From: a virus
Length of the DNA stretch: 64,000 nt
IMG/VR virus record: IMGVR_UViG_3300031963_000020
Span: 84,341 to 148,340 of that record
Strand: one strand, 5' to 3'
Within the stretch, counting starts at the first letter, position 1. Each line of letters starts with the position of its first letter. Position numbers and translations under genes: made by a program. Under the pieces are notes generated by a model. The model did no database searches and was not told the origin of the DNA. It saw only the letters and a list, made by a program, of their open reading frames with translations. Shown here one piece after another: positions 15,178 through 25,447 of this stretch.

Positions 15178-15843
15178 ATGAGTGTACAAATGTTTCGTGA
15201 GTTACAAGAACTAATCGATACGGCACAACACATAGTTATTGCTGTTATTGTGGCCGAAGGGTGTGAAAATTACAAGGGTAAATTCTTGACTGATTTGGAA
15301 AATCAAATCAAGGGTCAACAGAACCCAGTACATTTACACACCATTTGTTATCGTGAAGAACCAATTATGTTTCCACGCCCAATGACACAAGCGGTGTATT
15401 ATTTCGCACCAAAAAATTATACACCACTTTTTTATCGTCAAGGTGCAAGAGCGATGGACGCACCAATAGATATTGTAACGGCCATCAAAATGAGGCAGGG
15501 GATGTCCTATGCAGAGGCTGCATACGGTGCGGATAAGATGGAAAGTTACGAACGAACAGAAAATTTGGTAAAGAACGAAGATACATCAAAGTTTCCTTCA
15601 TTGTTTCAACAAGCACGTAATTTTGCAAAAGAAATGTGGCACGCAGGTAAAAATGCAGCAGTTGGATTACCTGTATTAGTAGATGCGGATATTGCATACA
15701 ATAGATTTGAAACGTGTCGTGGTTGTGAATTTTTAACACAAGATAGTTTTCGTTGTGAAAAATGTGGGTGTTTTATGAAAACAAAAACACAAATTGCAAC
15801 TTCTTCATGTCCAATTGGAAAATGGCACGCTATAACGCAGTAA
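15178..15843 (+). CDS. Protein with C-terminal Cys-rich domain (DUF6171-like) and possible degenerate thioredoxin-like N-terminus
   Basis: R...CRGC...CEKCGCFMKTKT.....CPIGKW. Confidence 0.55.
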   Translation: MSVQMFRELQELIDTAQHIVIAVIVAEGCENYKGKFLTDLENQIKGQQNPVHLHTICYREEPIMFPRPMTQAVYYFAPKNYTPLFYRQGARAMDAPIDIVTAIKMRQGMSYAEAAYGADKMESYERTENLVKNEDTSKFPSLFQQARNFAKEMWHAGKNAAVGLPVLVDADIAYNRFETCRGCEFLTQDSFRCEKCGCFMKTKTQIATSSCPIGKWHAITQ

Positions 15844-15878: not shown

Positions 15879-15888
15879 TTAGAATACT

Positions 15889-16620
15889 ATGTTAAGATTT
15901 TTTCCGTATAGAACATTTAGTTCGTCATTTGCATTCACGGGGTCCGCAGCACAAACTGCATCATTCGTGCTGTCTGGAACCACCGCATCGTTTTCACTAA
16001 CTGGTGGTGGTCCAACTGGTCCTGTTGGGCAAACGTCGGTAGTACAAGGTATTACAGGTGTATCAGGACCAACAGGTATAGGTCCAACAGGTCCACGTGG
16101 CACCACAGGTCCAACAGGCCCAAGATCAGCAACAGGTCCAACAGGACCAACTGGTATTACAGGACCAACTGGCGCTACAGGAGCAACTGGAGCTGCATCA
16201 ACTGGTCCAACAGGACCAATAGGAGTTTCAGGTAGTACAGGTCCAACAGGACCAACAGGTGCAACAGGTATTATCGGTATCACAGGTGCAACTGGTCCGA
16301 CAGGAGCAACAGGTCCAAGTGGTCCAACAGGTATTCAAGGTATTGCAGGGCCGCAAGGTGTTACTGGTGCTACGGGTCCAACTGGTGCAATTGGTGTCGC
16401 AGTATCAGGTATCCAAGGTCCAACAGGTGTAACAGGGCCGTCAGGTCCATTTGGTTCTTCTGGTCCACAAGGTACAATTGGTGTTACAGGTCCAACAGGA
16501 CCAACAGGTGCACAAGGAACCGCATTTACAGGGCCAACAGGTGCAACAGGTGCAACTGGTGCTACGGGTCCAACAGGAGCTGTGGGAGCTACTGGTCCAA
16601 CTGGTGCGAACACACCATAA
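15889..16620 (+). CDS. Collagen-like protein with N-terminal FFP motif
   Basis: MLRFFPY..SSSFA..TASF leader, then about 200 aa of G-X-Y to the C-terminus. Confidence 0.8.
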
Positions 16621-16635
16621 TAGAGAGAAAGTGTT

Positions 16636-18279
16636 ATGACGTTTAAATTTTTTCCGTTCGGTGTACCAACTACTAGTTCGTTTGCAATAGGAGTCGGAGT
16701 AACAGCTACCGCATCTATTGCAATTAATAGTGGTTCTGCGTTCTCTACGGCGTCATACGCACTGGGTGGGTCCACGGGTGCCACAGGTCCAAGTGGTCCG
16801 CAAGGAGCAACAGGTCCAACAGGTCCAACGGGTCCAACAGGCATTTCTGGATCAACTGGTGTTTTGGGTACTTCTGGTTCAACAGGACCACAAACGTCAG
16901 GGTCAACAGGTCCGACTGGACCAAGTGGTATTACTGGAGCAACAGGTCCAACAGGACCAACTGGTATTACGGGTTCTACGGGTGTAATAGGTATTACAGG
17001 ACCATCTGGTATTCGTGGTGCAACAGGTGCAACTGGAGCAACAGGTCCAACAGGCCCAACAGGTAGTGTTGGTATAACTGCTGGTATCATAGGTGTATCA
17101 GGTGTTACAGGCCCAACTGGTTCATCTGGTCCAACTGGTGTACAAGGAAGCACGGGTCCAACTGGTGTGGGGCCAACTGGAGCAACAGGTGCAACGGGTC
17201 CATCTGGTTCAGCAGGACCAACAGGACCAGTGGGACCAACAGGAGCAACTGGTGCAATCGGACCATCTGGATCTTCTGGTCCAAATACATTCGGAATAGT
17301 TGGTATAACTGGAGCAACTGGTCCTACTGGTGTTATCGGACCAACGGGACCACAAGGAAACGCTGGTCGAGCTGTATTTTTCATAACAGGATCATGTAAT
17401 CAAACACATTCCGATATCACCGTTCCTCACAGTGACGTTGCAGCAAGTCATACTGATATCGCAGCAGCACACACAGATACTACCATTAATGCATCACATA
17501 GTGACATTGTTACCACAACACCAGCATCACATACAGATAATACTACACCATTCGTAAATACGACTATTAACGCATCACATAGTGACACAACAATTAATGC
17601 ATCACATAGTGATATTGCGCATAGTAATATTACAATTAACGCCGCACATACTGATAATACCACACCATTTAATAATATCGCATTTACTAATATTGCAAAA
17701 TCACATACGGATATTTCACACAGCAATATATCACATACGAATATCGGAGCAGCACATACAGATAATACTACACCATTTAATAATATCGCGTTTAGTAATA
17801 TTGCATTCACAAATACCACTATACCATTTAGTAACATAGGATTTAGTAATTCGTATACTCCACATTCAAACATTGCTAAAGGTGCAGTTCATAAAGACGA
17901 TTACGGTCCACCAGCACATACAAATAGTACAACACCACATAGTAATATTGCATTCTCAAACACAGGATTCTCTAACTCGTATACTCCACATACAAACGTG
18001 GGTCATACGGATATTGCGTTCTCTAATACAGGATTTAGTAATAGTTATACTCCACATACTAATATTGGTTCAGCTCACACCAACACTACAATCAACGCAT
18101 CACACACAGATAATTACACGGCACATCAAAACGTAGCGCATGGAGATATACCGTTCGTGAATAGTTATACACCGGCACAATGTTCGCAATGTCCTGGTGG
18201 AGATCCGTCTGAATGTGATTCGTTCTGTGAATGTTATCCAAACTGTGGTTGCTTCGGTAATACGTGCATCGGTATATAA
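16636..18279 (+). CDS. Collagen + 38 x [HF]-x-[DN] repeat + 8-Cys tip protein (zipper chain C)
   Basis: MTFKFFPFG leader; G-X-Y to about aa 244; repeat array aa 258-509; C-terminus CSQC...CDSFCEC..NCGC....C. Confidence 0.85.
17407..18162 (+). repeat. [HF]-x-[DN] motif array (38 motifs, spacings 5/7/9/11 aa)
   Basis: Hand-parsed from translation ([21 protein letters not shown] ... HGDIP FVN). Confidence 0.9.
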
Positions 18280-18305
18280 TAAATGTTTATAATAGGGAAT
18301 AAATA

Positions 18306-19082
18306 ATGCCAGGTCCAACACATACAAATATAGGCCACTCCGATATAGCGTTTGAGAATGTCTACGCTGCGCATACTGATTTTACACAAAATCCGGCACA
18401 CACTGACAATACCACACCATTTAATAATATTGCAGCAGCTCATACCAATATCGCTCATAGTAATCAGGCATTTCTTAATACTTCATTTAGTAATATAGCA
18501 AAATCACACACCAATGTATCACATACAAATATTGGGCATACAGACGGTACGGCAGCACATACAGACAACTATTCACCAGCATCGCATTTAGATAATACTA
18601 GTGCACACTCAAATATCGCAGCAGCTCATACAAATATTGCACATAGTAATATAGCAACATCACACACAGATATATCTCACTCAAATATATCTCATACTAA
18701 CATCGGTGCATCACACACTGACAATACCACACCATTTAACAATATTGCGTTTAGTAATATTGGGTTCGTAAACACCACTATTCCACATACTAATATTGGT
18801 CACACTAATATAGGTGCAGCGCATTCAGATAATACAACACCAGCAGATCACAGCGATATCGCATTTAGTAATATTACGATTAACGCAAGTCACACGGATA
18901 TTACAATCAACGCAAGTCACACGGATATTGCAGCATCACATACCGATACTACCATTAACGCATCACACACGAATATAGTAAGTACCACTCCAGCTTCACA
19001 TACCGACAGTACAACACCATTTACAAATAGTACTACACCACACTCAAATGTTGCGGCCGCTCACAGTAACGCATTCCTATAA
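18306..19082 (+). CDS. Pure [HF]-x-[DN] repeat protein, 38 motifs (zipper chain D, mirror partner of 16636)
   Basis: Almost entirely HTN/HTD/HSN/FSN units; AGGGA SD-like element upstream. Confidence 0.85.
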   Translation: MPGPTHTNIGHSDIAFENVYAAHTDFTQNPAHTDNTTPFNNIAAAHTNIAHSNQAFLNTSFSNIAKSHTNVSHTNIGHTDGTAAHTDNYSPASHLDNTSAHSNIAAAHTNIAHSNIATSHTDISHSNISHTNIGASHTDNTTPFNNIAFSNIGFVNTTIPHTNIGHTNIGAAHSDNTTPADHSDIAFSNITINASHTDITINASHTDIAASHTDTTINASHTNIVSTTPASHTDSTTPFTNSTTPHSNVAAAHSNAFL

Positions 19083-19088
19083 TACACT

Positions 19089-19952
19089 ATGTCGCAATTT
19101 TTTCCACTAGGTACACCAACAACTGCAAGTACAGCACTTATCAGTAGTTTAGCATTTACCGCAACGTATGCTGTGAATGTGAATGTGTTGACAGCATCAT
19201 ATGGTCCTGGACCAACTGGACCACAAGGTGATAAAGGACCAACAGGACCACAAGGTGCAACTGGATTGGCAGGGTCAGGTTCTACAGGACCAACGGGCGC
19301 AACAGGTCCAACTGGGCTAACTAGTTCAGGTCCAACAGGTCCAACAGGACCGCAAGGTGTAATCGGTATTACTGGTATTACAGGCCCAACAGGTGTCACA
19401 GGTTCTACAGGCCCAACAGGTCCAATAGGAATTACTGGTGTAATTGGTGTTACAGGTATTTCTGGTGTAACTGGTATTGCTTCATTTACTTCGGGTTCCA
19501 CAGGCGCTACTGGGCCAACTGGAGCAACAGGTGCTACTGGTGTGGTGGGTATTACTGGTGCAACTGGTATTATTGGAATCACAGGACCAACAGGATTGAC
19601 TAATTTGGTGGGCATTACAGGTCCAACAGGTCCAATAGGATTACCAACCACGGGTTCTACAGGTCCAAGTGGTCCACAAGGAGCAACTGGTGTTGTAGGT
19701 ACTGGTGGTGTTTCTGCAGGAGCGGCGGCATCTGGAGTCATCGGTATTACGGGTATTACTGGTGTACAAGGTACCACAGGACCGCAAGGAAGTCGTGGTG
19801 TGGACGCCGAATGTCCAGCAGGATTTGTAACCTGTACGGAAGGGGCTCCGTCATCGGGGTCAAATACATATACAAACCCAAATAGTAGTATATATTCTGT
19901 GGTTTGTGCCGCAAGACCAGTAGGTTGTTTAGGAACATTTACGTGTGTATAA
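19089..19952 (+). CDS. Collagen-like protein with FFP leader and 5-Cys C-terminal domain
   Basis: MSQFFPLG leader; G-X-Y to about aa 237; ECPAGFVTC...VVC....GC....TCV. Confidence 0.8.
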
Positions 19953-20024: not shown

Positions 20025-21218
20025 ATGGCTAAAGCACCTGGTAGTATTTGGGTAGATGGTGAAACCTTTAGATTTATTGACGCAACTGGAAACGAGTACT
20101 ATTACACTGGTACTGCGGGGTCTAGTCCTGCGGGAGCTAAGGCTGGTTCAATTTGGGTAGACGGAAATGATTTTCATTATATTTCTGCTACTGGTGTTGA
20201 CCGTACAATTGCATACACCGATTTGGGTGTAGCAGCGGGATCAAAACCAGGTTCAGTATGGGTGCAAACCACATTCTGGCAATGGATATCATCGGCAGGA
20301 AACGCTCGTCGTGGTCACACCGACGTAACAGCAGCACACACCGACAATACCACCCCAGCATCTCACACAGATATTGCATTCGTTAATACTACAATTAACG
20401 CGGCACACACAGATACTACAATCAACGCAAGCCATACAGATATAGCAAAAGCACACACGGATAACACAACACCAAATAGTCACACGGACAACACTACTCC
20501 GTTCAATAATATTGCGTTCGTTAATACTACAATCAATGCCGCTCACACGGATAATACAACGAACGCAAGCCATACAGATATAGCAAAAGCACACACGGAT
20601 AACACAACACCAAATAGTCATACTAACAGCTATACTCCACATAGTAATGTCGCACACACCAATATTGGTGCAGCGCACACGGACAACACTACTCCGTTTA
20701 ATAATATCGCATTCACTAACACCTATATTGGTAACAGTCACACCAACAGTTATACTCCACACAGTAATGTCGCACACACCAATATTGGTGCAGCGCACAC
20801 GGACAACACTACTCCGTTTAATAATATAGCATTTACCAATTCATATACAGGTAATAATCACACTAACAATTACACACCACACACCAATATCGGTCACAGT
20901 AATATCGGTCATACTAATATCGGATTTAGTAACATAGCATTTAGTAATATTGGATTTACCAATACAACTATCAATGCATCACACACAAATATCAGTCATA
21001 GTAATATTGGTGTATCGCATACAAATATCGGTCATAGTAATGTTGGATTTAGTAATTCGTATACTGGACACACAAACATTGCACATAGTAATATAGGCGT
21101 ATCGCATACAAATATTGGACATAGTAATGTTGGATTTAGTAATTCGTATACAGGATTTGTAAATTCTTACACACCACAAAATCACACAAATTCGTATCAG
21201 GGTGGTCCTTCAGCCTAA
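20025..21218 (+). CDS. Three GS[IV]WV repeats + 44 x [HF]-x-[DN] repeat protein (zipper chain A)
   Basis: N-terminal 97 aa with PGSIWVDG/AGSIWVDG/PGSVWVQ; array from aa 98 (nt 20316). Confidence 0.85.
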   Translation: MAKAPGSIWVDGETFRFIDATGNEYYYTGTAGSSPAGAKAGSIWVDGNDFHYISATGVDRTIAYTDLGVAAGSKPGSVWVQTTFWQWISSAGNARRGHTDVTAAHTDNTTPASHTDIAFVNTTINAAHTDTTINASHTDIAKAHTDNTTPNSHTDNTTPFNNIAFVNTTINAAHTDNTTNASHTDIAKAHTDNTTPNSHTNSYTPHSNVAHTNIGAAHTDNTTPFNNIAFTNTYIGNSHTNSYTPHSNVAHTNIGAAHTDNTTPFNNIAFTNSYTGNNHTNNYTPHTNIGHSNIGHTNIGFSNIAFSNIGFTNTTINASHTNISHSNIGVSHTNIGHSNVGFSNSYTGHTNIAHSNIGVSHTNIGHSNVGFSNSYTGFVNSYTPQNHTNSYQGGPSA

Positions 21219-21238
21219 TGCATGAAAAGGAATAATAT

Positions 21239-22144
21239 ATGAATCATAGTAATTCGACAACACCAGCATCACATACGAACATCGGTGCATCACATACTAA
21301 TATCGGGTTTAGTAATGTGGGGTTTAGTAATAGTTATACTCCATTTTCAAATGTTGGGTTCGGTAATGTCAATGCATCACATACTGATATTGGATTTAGT
21401 AATGTGGGATTTGCAAATTCTTACACACCATTTAGTAATGTAGGGTTTTCCAATAGTTACACACCAAATTCACACACTAATATTGCACACAGCAATATTG
21501 GTCATAGTAATATTGGATTTAATAATATTGCGTTTAGTAATATCGCATTTGGTAATATTGCAAGAACACATACCGATAACACTACAAATGCAAGTCATAC
21601 CAACATTGGTCATACAAATATTGGTGCTGCACACACGAATAACACCACACCATTTAATAATATAGCGTTTAGTAATATTGCGAAGGCACACACAGATAAC
21701 ACTACAAATGCAAGTCATACCAATATCGCGCATACAAATATTGGTGCTGCACATACGGATAACACCACACCATTTAATAATATAGCGTTTAGTAATATTG
21801 CGAAGGCACATACGGACAATACTACAATTGCCTCACACACGGACAATTACACTCCGCATACAAACACTACAATTAATGCGGCACATACCGACAATACAAC
21901 ACCAGCATCACATACGGATATCGCACATACTAATATTGCTGCAGCACATACGGACAATACTACTAACGCAGCCCATACGGACAATTACACCCCGCATACA
22001 AACACTACAATTAATGCCGCACACACGGATACCACAATCAACGCAAGTCATACCGACATTGCGCACACTAATACAACAATTAATGCTGCACACACGGATA
22101 ACACCACACCACATAGCGACCAACCAGTATTTGTTGGTCCATAA
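21239..22144 (+). CDS. Pure [HF]-x-[DN] repeat protein, 44 motifs (zipper chain B, mirror partner of 20025)
   Basis: AAGGA SD at 21227-21231; ends HSDQPVFVGP. Confidence 0.85.
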   Translation: MNHSNSTTPASHTNIGASHTNIGFSNVGFSNSYTPFSNVGFGNVNASHTDIGFSNVGFANSYTPFSNVGFSNSYTPNSHTNIAHSNIGHSNIGFNNIAFSNIAFGNIARTHTDNTTNASHTNIGHTNIGAAHTNNTTPFNNIAFSNIAKAHTDNTTNASHTNIAHTNIGAAHTDNTTPFNNIAFSNIAKAHTDNTTIASHTDNYTPHTNTTINAAHTDNTTPASHTDIAHTNIAAAHTDNTTNAAHTDNYTPHTNTTINAAHTDTTINASHTDIAHTNTTINAAHTDNTTPHSDQPVFVGP

Positions 22145-22209: not shown

Positions 22210-23529
22210 ATGACTATTGAATTAGAACCAGTTGGTGTAGTATGTAATTTAAGTTGCCCGTATTGTTACGAACATCCCATGCGAGATGCGGGTAATTTCC
22301 GACATAAAACATATTCCGTTGAAAAAATGTTAGAAGGTCTTGCCAAAGAAGGTGGTAATTTTACCCTCTTTGGTGGTGAACCATTATTAACTGATATTGA
22401 CGATTTAGAAACTATTTTTAAGTGGGGGTTTGACCGATATGGATTTAATGGTATTCAAACAAATGGTGTTTTAATTACTGACCGCCACATAGAAATGTTT
22501 AAGAAGTACAGAGTTCACGTCGGAATATCACTTGATGGTCCTGACGAAATGAACGACACGCGTTGGGCAGGGTCATTAGAAAAGACCAGAGAGGCTACCC
22601 GCAAGTCATTTGAAGCTATTAAAAAGTGTCTTGACAACAAGCTCTCACTTGGTTTAATTATTACTATCCATAAGAAGAACGGATTACCAAAATATCGTGA
22701 ACGTTTCAAGGCATGGATTAAAGAACTTCAGTCGTGGGGTGTTGATGGAGCAAGACTTCATCCACTAGAGATTGACCATAGTTCTGTTGGTGAAACATTA
22801 GCTCTTACACCAGAACAAAATATTGAGTTCCTATTAGATATGTGGGACTTTGAAATCAGTGAACTAAATGTTCCTGGTAAGAAATCATTTCAGTTTGATA
22901 TCTTCCGTGACGTAGAATATATGTTGCGTGCAGACGATGCAAACGCAACCTGTACATTTATGACTTGTGACCCATATACCACGCATGCGGTGCAAGGTAT
23001 TGACTCGCAAGGTAATAAAGCAAACTGCGGTCGTGGTAACAAAGAAGGTATTAACTGGATTAAAGCCGATGTTGACGGATTTGAACGTCAGATGGCACTA
23101 TATAATACACCACAAGAACATGGTGGATGTCAGGGGTGCCGATTCTTTATTATGTGTAAGTCACACTGCCCAGGTACAGGTGCAGATATGGACTGGAGAA
23201 ATAGAACGGATACCTGTATGAATTGGAAGGTAGCGTTTAGTATCTATGAACGAATGATGGTTGAACGTGGTGAGATGCCATTATCTCTAGACCCAAAATT
23301 AAAGAGATATGAAGATATTTTGATGTATGGTTATAGTAGAGGTGCAGAACTTAGATTAGAACACATTAAAAAGTATCTTGACCCAAATATTGGATTTGAT
23401 ATTGAAAGATACATCCAATCATATTTGATGAACCAAGCTATGGGTGGACACAAGCCACACGCAGACCATACAGATGAAACAGGAAGATACGCATTAGAGT
23501 TTAAAGAGAAGTACGGATATTTACCTTAA
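22210..23529 (+). CDS. Radical SAM enzyme with SPASM-type C-terminal domain (peptide/protein maturase-like)
   Basis: CNLSCPYC (CxxxCxxC), FGGEPLL, QTNG, GISLDGP; C-terminal CTFMTC...NC...CQGCRFFIMCKSHCP...C; tail HADHTD. Confidence 0.92.
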   Translation: MTIELEPVGVVCNLSCPYCYEHPMRDAGNFRHKTYSVEKMLEGLAKEGGNFTLFGGEPLLTDIDDLETIFKWGFDRYGFNGIQTNGVLITDRHIEMFKKYRVHVGISLDGPDEMNDTRWAGSLEKTREATRKSFEAIKKCLDNKLSLGLIITIHKKNGLPKYRERFKAWIKELQSWGVDGARLHPLEIDHSSVGETLALTPEQNIEFLLDMWDFEISELNVPGKKSFQFDIFRDVEYMLRADDANATCTFMTCDPYTTHAVQGIDSQGNKANCGRGNKEGINWIKADVDGFERQMALYNTPQEHGGCQGCRFFIMCKSHCPGTGADMDWRNRTDTCMNWKVAFSIYERMMVERGEMPLSLDPKLKRYEDILMYGYSRGAELRLEHIKKYLDPNIGFDIERYIQSYLMNQAMGGHKPHADHTDETGRYALEFKEKYGYLP

Positions 23530-23965: not shown

Positions 23966-25447
23966 ATGCAAAGAATAAAGCATGTCTTGCCTGATTGGAC
24001 TCGGGTGCAGTGGACTTCTATAGAAAATAGAAACAAATACGAACCTATCATTGCGTCTATCAATAACGCATGGAAACAGATTGAACGTATGTCGGTTGTT
24101 CACGATATTCGTCCATCTTCACTAGATATATTATCACCAGAAGAACTCATAAATTTAACTGCGGAATACGAAAAACATGGAGTACTCGTAGTTCCTATTG
24201 GTAAAGAAGGAAAAGCAGGAACTTACTCGTCTACAAGTACACCATATAATGGTGGTGATTACAATATTCGTGTTGTATTCACAAAGTCTGAAGCTATAGC
24301 AGATGAATGGTTTAATATCTGGCAAGCAGAACCCCGCATTCGTGACCGTGAGGCTGGTCGTTTACTTGGGTATCCTACCTGCTGCACCAATCATTTTATG
24401 AAGTATTGGGTAGACCAGGAATTTGTTGATACTACGTGGACGATGGCAGCGGAAAATATGCAGTTAAATGATGACGATGAAACGCATCGTACTATTCATA
24501 TTAAGGCAGATACTCCACCTGAAGCAAACATAATGTGGCGTTGGCAAGGTGTACGATTGGTATCACATCTTCCGTGTTCGTTTGATTGCAAGGCAACAGA
24601 AGAACTTGGTATGAAGATGGCAGAACTTGGTCGTACACTTGGGTTTGAAAAAGAAGTAAATTGGATATATGAATTACTTTCGTGGCCTGTTGAATGGTCA
24701 GCACTGCATGGTATCGCAGAAATCCGTACACCAATCAACAAGATTTCATCCAGAACTGATATGACCCCGTGGAAGTATGTGGTACAGAAGCATGCACACG
24801 AATATCCTATTGATGGTATGTCTGGTATAACGTATCCGTATAATCAAAAGAAAATTAAAGTCAAACCCGTCACAAAAACTATCTCGTTCGCTAAATCTCT
24901 TGAAGATACTTCCGTATGGGAAGAAAACGGATTTAGTAATAAGGAAGCTATGGATCACTTCCACCAAGTTATCATTGACGCAATCGGGGATATGAAATAT
25001 ATTCCTGGTGGTAATGTCCTCGACCTCGGTTGTGGAAATGGTGTCTTGTTAGGTCGTGTAGTTGGAGACAGATTTGATCTCATCCCACACGGTGTTGAAG
25101 CAGACCGTCAACGTTGTATGTCCGCAGCAACTACCATCCATTGGGGTGTCTTTACAATGGGTAGCATCTTTGACCTTAATACGTGGAAGGAAGATACATA
25201 TAGTTTGGTACTTTTGATGCCAGGCAGACTTCTTGAAACCACACGTGTAGTATCAGAACAAGTGCGTAAGCAACTCTATGACAAGACAGACCTTGTTCTT
25301 ATCAACCTAACTTGTGATTGGACACAACAATATGGCTCGATTGAGAATATTATGAAGGTCACAGGTCTTGACCAAGAATGGGAACCAGCAGGTAAGTTAA
25401 TCCATCGTCAAGATGATATGGCACAACTTTTCAAGCGTAAGGTGTAA
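23966..25447 (+). CDS. DUF483-like domain fused to class I SAM-dependent methyltransferase
   Basis: GRLLGYPTCCTNHF and HLPCSFDC in the N-terminal part; VLDLGCGNG motif I in the C-terminal part. Confidence 0.65.
   Translation: MQRIKHVLPDWTRVQWTSIENRNKYEPIIASINNAWKQIERMSVVHDIRPSSLDILSPEELINLTAEYEKHGVLVVPIGKEGKAGTYSSTSTPYNGGDYNIRVVFTKSEAIADEWFNIWQAEPRIRDREAGRLLGYPTCCTNHFMKYWVDQEFVDTTWTMAAENMQLNDDDETHRTIHIKADTPPEANIMWRWQGVRLVSHLPCSFDCKATEELGMKMAELGRTLGFEKEVNWIYELLSWPVEWSALHGIAEIRTPINKISSRTDMTPWKYVVQKHAHEYPIDGMSGITYPYNQKKIKVKPVTKTISFAKSLEDTSVWEENGFSNKEAMDHFHQVIIDAIGDMKYIPGGNVLDLGCGNGVLLGRVVGDRFDLIPHGVEADRQRCMSAATTIHWGVFTMGSIFDLNTWKEDTYSLVLLMPGRLLETTRVVSEQVRKQLYDKTDLVLINLTCDWTQQYGSIENIMKVTGLDQEWEPAGKLIHRQDDMAQLFKRKV

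Follow-up and report, generated by a model that had tools for sequence, protein, structure and literature searches.

The window analysed here is a stretch of 64,000 nucleotides, the final 64 kb of a 148-kb IMG/VR record (IMGVR_UViG_3300031963_000020) of an uncultivated virus, which is about 72% complete. It encodes proteins of replication (a helicase, a DNA polymerase and a ribonucleotide reductase) and of the tail (tape-measure-like and fibre-like proteins). A locus at 15.9–25.4 kb, with every gene on the plus strand, sits within the block of tail-fibre genes. The gene order is: a collagen-like gene, the genes of proteins A and B, a second collagen-like gene, the genes of proteins C and D, a gene for a radical S-adenosylmethionine (SAM)/SPASM enzyme, a gene for a protein of 132 residues and a fusion of DUF483 with a methyltransferase-like domain (Table 1). 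Proteins A to D each contain a long array of the three-residue motif [H/F]x[D/N], and the spacings of the motifs in A and C recur in reverse order in B and D, respectively. We describe this mirror, its conservation in related phages and the fibre architecture that it suggests.

Motif spacings of A/B and C/D in opposite order

The translations were searched for motifs with the regular expression [HF]x[DN]. The count was 38 each for the dense zone of A and for protein B and 44 each for C and D, 164 motifs together, 50 of which carry Phe, and the spacings were only 5, 7, 9 or 11 residues. A 39th motif of A (FGN) lies outside the dense zone, within the Cys-rich tail. A sequence-only reading of the window had listed 38 motifs and their spacings for each of the genes starting at 16636 and 18306 (A and B), and our recount agrees with it exactly. 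The same reading had placed the array of A with a collagen stalk on one side and a Cys-rich tip on the other, which is borne out by the Pfam match and the Cys content given in Table 1.

In an ungapped comparison, the reversed spacings of A were the same as the spacings of B at 34 of 37 places. This reproduces both the agreement noticed earlier and its account of the three mismatches, two of which form a compensating swap (11,9 against 9,11), the third being a bulge of two residues (9 versus 7; HSNIAKGAV in A, HLDNTSA in B). Local alignment of reversed A with B gave a score of 32, compared with 12.4 ± 2.0 (maximum 21) in 1000 shuffles of the unit order (z about 10). For C and D, all of the 43 reversed spacings were identical (z about 12 against unit-order shuffles). 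It is clear that the match is confined to the cognate pairs: in the all-versus-all reversed-spacing alignment of the four proteins that had been suggested as a check, every non-cognate pair remained at chance, as did the forward alignments (z between −0.5 and 1.7), and thus the code of A/B does differ from that of C/D. At the residue level, the motifs of C and D stand in exact register (44/44); in A and B, 22 motifs share one offset and the remainder continue past the bulge. Non-cognate pairs gave at most 14 coincidences with uninterrupted runs of at most 8, and mispairing between the two codes would be limited to short runs.

The DNA at the start of the A zone (17443–17566) and at the end of the B zone (18912–19035) consists of forward copies with 77% identity. 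The length pattern of this block, 7,9,11,7, is nearly palindromic, which explains the 9,11 swap between A and B; the swap was also found in two relatives. C contains tandem duplications of 138, 120 and 87 nt, and D contains them in the mirrored order of 87, 120 and 138 nt. A central, locally palindromic stretch is present in A as well as in B, and self-pairing would be possible there over 13–15 rungs (by a rung we mean two motifs that face each other in the mirrored register).

One could suppose that repeat composition or a rearrangement of the DNA produced the mirror and that it is not under selection. An array with a regular period (7,9,7,9) is its own mirror image for trivial reasons, and two related loci (L009, L010) have parts of this sort; in addition, two blocks of DNA on locally palindromic stretches are homologous, in forward orientation, between A and B. 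However, the codes of this locus are aperiodic, and the shuffled and forward alignments stayed at chance. Moreover, one strand carries both genes, whereas inversion of a DNA copy would change the encoded residues, and the mirror survives 8–21 code edits between phages, as described below. We consider the probability of such an origin practically negligible.

Conservation of the mirror and residue rules across rungs

A search of IMG/VR with the enzyme yielded 22 loci. Split pairs of five further phages have other codes and keep the mirror (45/46, 42/43, 37/38, 28/32 and 11/12). In other relatives the array lies in a single chain, which is mirrored onto itself: a protein of 869 aa scored 101/101, a collagen-bearing protein of the A type 39/39, and three more 42/56, 20/24 and 15/17; the single chain of Thermus phage phiLo_137 was self-mirrored at 51/77 against 24.6 ± 2.4 in the null. 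Unit-level tests were used for this purpose, as global self-alignment of residues performs poorly on hairpins whose ends are uneven. The comparison was extended to five related phages in a 6×6 matrix of outgoing arms (such as those of A and C) against reversed returning arms (such as those of B and D); the edit distances of cognate arms were 0–3 and those of all other combinations 8–21, and orthologous arms were also 8–21 edits apart from one another. It follows that changes in an arm have often been balanced by changes in its partner, and by analogy they resemble the compensatory changes that mark an RNA helix.

Protein C begins with the N-terminal three-repeat domain of the single-chain relatives and D ends with their conserved tail, for which reason C and D together look like a hairpin cut at its turn. 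Judged by its sequence, the A/B pair is the putative split form of the collagen-bearing hairpin of locus L010. That B and D are made of the repeat zone only would also fit a different role, in which B (and likewise D) acts for a time as a template or as a chaperone of assembly, pairs with A while it folds or is modified by the enzyme and then leaves, without a place in the finished fibre; phage fibres often require dedicated chaperones, such as gp38 and gp57A in the case of gp37 (PMC6957217). In single-chain relatives, however, the returning arm belongs covalently to the fibre and has the conserved tail seen in D, and the returning-arm protein of locus L012 bears a Cys-rich tip domain of its own. 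A chaperone role is thus very unlikely.

Two close relatives use three genes for the A-type fibre (L003:3965-6706 and L004:4231-6828). The first, A1, has a collagen stalk and 14 motifs and ends with TAA; the second, A2, starts from an ATG of its own and carries 29 motifs and a Cys-rich tip; B is one returning arm, along which the code follows reversed A2 for 25 units and thereafter the reversed head of A1 for 11 units. The tail of A1 that is left over (7,9) mirrors the head of A2 (9,7,7) over only 2–3 rungs, which suggests a short side branch or a three-way junction.

The sequence-only reading had regarded the two codes as orthogonal barcodes, by which each of the two fibres chooses its own partner. 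The codes indeed fail to cross-match. The part concerning partner choice stands less firmly, because the code also differs in single-chain fibres (L010), in which there is no partner to choose, and for this reason selection for orthogonality is only plausible. The two fibres could simply have diverged in their codes, with a useful side effect.

The residues that meet in the mirrored register also follow rules. Phe was found opposite Phe in only 1 of 290 rungs, while about 24 such rungs were expected, and a shift of the register by one or two rungs relaxes this avoidance. The third residue of a His motif depends on the motif it faces: opposite His it was Asp in 185 cases and Asn in 67, and opposite Phe it was Asn in 141 and Asp in 27. 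The four-residue linkers are either Pro-ended ("xxTP", e.g. NTTP, SYTP, TTIP) or small Ile/Ala linkers ("IxAx", e.g. IGAA, IAAS, IAKS). One type stood opposite the other in 84 of 106 pairs (44 ± 4, maximum 57, in 2000 shuffles) and no like-with-like pair occurred. The length mirror does not imply any of these rules, which independently confirm the predicted register. The precise offset between the strands, with His across from either His or Asp, was sought by a mutual-information scan, but correlations inside the chains were strong and confounded it.

In the rung lists of both zippers (17407–19070 and 20316–22120) we also noticed that tip-proximal rungs are mostly His–Phe, with Asn and short units of 5 residues, and base-proximal rungs mostly His–His, with Asp and units of 7 or 9 residues.

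Several observations concern the surroundings of the four genes. The N-terminal motif FFP-x-G-x-PT... is common to three collagen-like proteins (15889–16620, 16636–16767 and 19089–19200), and it probably serves all three for attachment to the particle. Directly upstream of the collagen genes lies a gene for a DUF6171 protein with a C-terminal Cys cluster (15178–15843). Long open reading frames (ORFs) are present on the minus strand over the collagen and repeat regions (15879–16283, 16335–17384, 17448–17873, 19061–19777 and 20289–20798). Their translations are P-V-G-P and Cys/Val-rich, and they resemble side effects of codon periodicity in the sense genes rather than genes. The reading frames of B and D differ from those of A and C, and each has its own Shine–Dalgarno sequence and ATG. 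Joining of A and B by read-through or frameshifting was considered and ruled out by the differing frames, by the double stop of A and by the Shine–Dalgarno sequence and ATG of B.

Table 1. Features of the locus (positions in the window; aa, residues of the protein concerned; arms as predicted)
Feature	Position (nt)	Strand	Remarks
Protein A, 547 aa	16636..18279	+	N-terminal anchor motif, collagen stalk, outgoing arm, Cys-rich tip
A, collagen G-X-Y stalk	16768-17373	+	aa 45 to 246; Pfam PF01391, E 8e-24
A, zipper zone (outgoing arm)	17407-18162	+	aa 258-509; 38 [H/F]x[D/N] motifs
A, Cys-rich tip	18163-18276	+	8 Cys among last 38 aa
Protein B, 258 aa	18306..19082	+	returning arm only; own Shine–Dalgarno sequence (AGGGA) and ATG
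B, motif zone	18321-19070	+	aa 6-255; 38 motifs, unit-length order of A reversed
Collagen-like protein between the pairs	19089..19952	+	A-type N-terminal anchor motif, own Cys-rich C-terminus, without zipper zone
Protein C, 397 aa	20025..21218	+	N-terminal domain of three beta-hairpin repeats; outgoing arm, 44 motifs
Protein D, 301 aa	21239..22144	+	returning arm, 44 motifs; C-terminal H-S-D-Q-P-V tail conserved in family
Radical SAM/SPASM enzyme	22210..23529	+	CX3CX2C at aa 12-19; Cx2Cx5Cx3C near aa 307-320; tail HADHTD (two H-x-D)
Small protein, 132 aa	23548..23946	+	two HADHVD motifs; kept 3' of enzyme gene in closest relatives
DUF483 and class I methyltransferase-like domain, fused	23966..25447	+	

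The radical SAM/SPASM and DUF483 genes

The translation of the enzyme gene contains the radical SAM motif CX3CX2C and the SPASM motif Cx2Cx5Cx3C, whose Cys residues were invariant in 10 homologues, and it matches PF04055. Its best profile matches were anaerobic sulfatase maturase and DynA, YhhB and AmcB, which are cross-linking enzymes, and its best PDB matches by sequence were anSME (covering aa 3–320) and the triceptide synthase ChlB. In nearly all relatives a DUF483 gene lies 3' of the radical SAM gene. When the N-terminal domain of the fibre alone was used as the query, 20 loci were obtained; four of them had been missed by the enzyme search, and in all four the radical SAM and DUF483 genes lay directly downstream.

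We also scanned bacteria and archaea, with one genome per species, and obtained 303 relatives of the enzyme, the best 80 loci of which were examined. In these, DUF483 was found beside the enzyme in 76 and an ORF with H-x-D repeats in 49. The bacterial H-x-D ORF is often the C-terminal part of a protein of 1000–2300 aa, with units of 7 or 8 aa, and the array shows one irregular stretch at or near its middle, as expected of a hairpin turn. The 303 relatives span Acidobacteriota, Actinomycetota, Bacteroidota, Chloroflexota, Cyanobacteria, Bacillota, Planctomycetota, Myxococcota and one metagenome-assembled genome of Nitrososphaeraceae. In the bacterial and archaeal contigs (L053–L132), the predicted hairpins of these long proteins have a Pro-ended arm, an arm of Ala/Gln type and a turn of the type H-x-D-G-S-F-I-G; the proteins may be fibres of prophages or belong to the cell surface.

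In most lineages the C-terminus of the enzyme carries a short H-x-D array, the tails being otherwise unrelated. Such tails were also seen in L001, L002, L036, L038 and L043; the sequence is HADHTD here and HGDYTDHGD... in Thermus phage Cumys. The tail of the enzyme, or the small protein with HADHVD motifs, could be a built-in partner strand for docking on the substrate, or a self-substrate.

The "rSAM module" of Thermus phages Cumys and phiMa belongs to the same family: the radical SAM protein is 45–51% identical over 90–97% of the enzyme (tblastn), and the gene order agrees, with a DUF483 gene downstream. The protein encoded upstream has the three-repeat N-terminal domain and H-x-D repeats; in Cumys_13 this domain shows the G-S-x-W motif as in C, comparable with an alignment of the domain from the IMG/VR relatives. 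The Thermus fibre differs from ours in being one chain with units of 3–6 aa. A preprint on the Thermus phages reports the gene trio and proposes DNA modification, and is silent on the H-x-D repeats and the mirror (bioRxiv 10.1101/2024.08.14.607894). Except for this preprint, nothing relevant was found in the literature on cyclophanes or triceptides in phages and cyanophages or on tail fibres with radical SAM enzymes.

Position 1 of the motif is only His or Phe here, with Tyr and Trp too in relatives, position 2 is variable throughout the family and position 3 is only Asp or Asn, in keeping with the aromatic-X-X motif of triceptides. The radical SAM enzyme probably acts on the motifs. Which reaction it would catalyse can be proposed only tentatively; formation of a three-residue cyclophane, in which the aromatic residue is bonded to a C-beta, is the candidate we favour, because position 1 is always aromatic, position 2 is free and a known synthase takes His and Phe alike. 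In dynobactin, Trp is bonded to the C-beta of Asn on a W-x-N motif. The triceptide synthase HtkB cross-links HTK as well as FTK (PMC11499958).

The same antiparallel build could instead have metal sites as its rungs, with facing His and Asp residues binding divalent ions and the radical SAM enzyme serving another modification or as a folding helper. The needle of gp37 is a precedent, as this doubled-back, six-stranded trimer has His-bound iron along its axis (PMC12609058, PMC6957217). Asp is enriched at His–His rungs, which metal sites would fit, and the Thermus and bacterial members are almost purely H-x-D. However, about 30% of the motifs are Phe-x-Asn and incapable of binding metal, position 1 is exchanged only for aromatic residues and never for other metal ligands, and the strict linkage to the radical SAM/SPASM enzyme has no counterpart in fibres of the gp37 type. 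We consider metal rungs unlikely.

Repeated aromatic-X-X motifs beside a SPASM enzyme also recall the repeat-containing precursors of triceptides (PMC11499958), and A to D might accordingly be multi-core precursors of RiPPs (peptides synthesised by ribosomes and modified after translation), which are modified and then cut to small, non-structural cyclophane peptides. A length mirror between two genes, compensated as often as it is here, would be pointless in a precursor that is cut up. In addition, the proteins have a collagen stalk, a Cys-rich tip and a folded N-terminal domain, the genes are located in the tail-fibre block, and the module is without a protease gene. This makes a precursor function highly improbable.

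Proposed fibre architecture and comparison with known systems

We estimate a chance of about three in four that the shaft is a split hairpin with A and B as its arms, which uses unit lengths as its code and is matured by the radical SAM and DUF483 module. That A pairs with B, antiparallel and in register, is very probable; because the matches are restricted to cognate arms, both in the four proteins and in the 6×6 matrix, and because the residue rules are specific to the register, this was the only fitting explanation we found. In the relatives, the shaft would be one chain that goes out, turns and comes back as a self-mirrored hairpin, and in this phage the chain would be divided at the turn into two genes. 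A would supply the proximal collagen stalk, the outgoing arm and the distal Cys-rich tip, and B would begin at the tip and return to the stalk. Each [H/F]-x-[D/N] motif would meet one from the other arm, and the units of 5, 7, 9 or 11 aa would set a single register, so that the code could be satisfied by the cognate arm alone; the C/D pair would use a separate code. Each rung is predicted to have at least one His, with Asp for His–His and Asn for His–Phe, and Pro-ended linkers would be paired with small Ile/Ala linkers. The enzyme and the DUF483 protein would be an obligatory maturation module for the fibre proteins, and its likeliest reaction, a cyclophane within each motif, might stiffen the shaft. 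The collagen domain suggests that the A fibre is trimeric, and therefore three A and three B chains, that is six strands, are the likely unit of the A/B fibre. These fibres would be located on the virion.

The closest structural analogue of such a shaft is the needle of T4 gp37, whose chain doubles back at the receptor-binding head, so that three hairpins form a shaft with His-bound iron (PMC12609058, PMC6957217). His motifs at regular spacings line the gp37 shaft. Here too the tip would lie at the turn, and the single-chain relatives found here appear to be hairpins, although they are known from sequence alone. A length mirror within single chains, and between A and B, is what would be expected of a doubled-back fold like that of gp37. 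The differences are considerable: gp37 has the iron-binding motif HxH and 7 rungs, while the proteins described here have [H/F]x[D/N] and about 40 rungs per arm, and instead of the chaperones gp38 and gp57A there is a radical SAM/DUF483 module, a hairpin made by two genes and variable unit lengths that would act as a code.

Searches by sequence and structure gave little. Protein C and protein B matched nothing meaningful in the PDB by sequence, the repeat zones had no match to gp37 tip families in Pfam, NCBIfam, PHROG or PDB sequences, and megablast of the locus against GenBank phages gave no match. An Atlas feature search with B returned sub-threshold leads only, among them a gp37_trimer cluster at 0.81, below the reliability mark of the tool. 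The N-terminal domain of C (20025–20315; three G-S-x-W-V...F-x-Y-I-D repeats) was predicted as stacked beta-hairpins with a predicted local distance difference test score (pLDDT) of 94; with this model Foldseek found no structure at E ≤ 0.001, only a faint likeness to choline-binding/CROP hairpin repeats (template modelling score about 0.2). Prediction of a complex of A (255–547) with B gave a score of 0.00, which, as it was obtained without controls, weighs neither for nor against binding.

Some results weigh against the split hairpin and its maturation as proposed. The loci behind the rung rules are kin, so their counts exceed the number of independent events. In members with a short period of 3–5 aa (L037, L038 and many bacterial loci), the unit-level mirror is weak or absent, and strict length coding is thus not universal in the family. 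AlphaFold2, run on the single sequence of a hairpin relative (L010:9076-9939), gave an unusable model with a mean pLDDT of 41. It folded the N-terminal domain of C confidently as a monomer, and six strands are for this reason not assured for C/D. For all of the named families of cyclophane synthases, the enzyme scores far under the cut-off (in bits, score/cut-off: YhhB 65/445, AmcB 58/425, GrrM/OscB 48/310, FxsB 45/370 and XyeB 38/450). Finally, the known substrates of triceptide synthases are short leader–core peptides, whereas those proposed here are 258–547 aa long and have collagen, tip and N-terminal domains.

In other respects the triceptide systems (HtkB, HaaB, YhhB, ChlB) are similar, as they combine a SPASM radical SAM enzyme with neighbouring repeated aromatic-X-X substrates, and either His or Phe can stand at position 1 (PMC11499958). 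They differ in that there are 38–44 motifs per chain here, with Asp or Asn at position 3, and an enzyme under every family cut-off. The His-Xaa-Ser (Hxs) systems have Ser as the third residue instead of Asp or Asn, and B, C and D had no match among the NCBIfam models, including that of the HxsA-type repeat protein. Runs of 5-aa units near the consensus [ST][DN][LF]xx resemble pentapeptide repeats, but units of 7, 9 and 11 aa would break the four-sided helix, and the pentapeptide-repeat Pfam scores of the repeat zones were below gathering (18.7 versus 38 and 19.7 versus 26.4). In heterospecific coiled coils and in the registers of collagen heterotrimers, a repeat code also sets the partners and the register; there, the period is fixed and the code lies in how side chains are charged or packed, whereas here it would lie in successive unit lengths read in opposite directions. 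A length-coded two-chain zipper of this kind is not described in any known family, structure or paper.

If the pairing is physical, it would be a new means for proteins to specify partner and register across tens of nanometres, with a code legible from the sequence alone and natural orthogonal pairs within one virion. With more reserve than for the cyclophane itself, one may go further and imagine a programmable zipper, its specificity residing in unit lengths read oppositely, which serves split, spliced and perhaps branched fibres and places about 160 enzyme-installed cyclophanes in virion proteins. For radical SAM enzymology, the interest would be a RiPP-type enzyme that works on structural proteins of large size and reaches about 40 sites in each chain. 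Phage structural biology would gain a view of how fibres are built and exchanged, and protein design would gain orthogonal, length-coded, extended heterodimers. The rSAM–DUF483 module, present in Thermus phages and in many bacterial phyla, gains a concrete candidate function, and the zipper, if it exists as proposed, would be a protein counterpart of strand complementarity.

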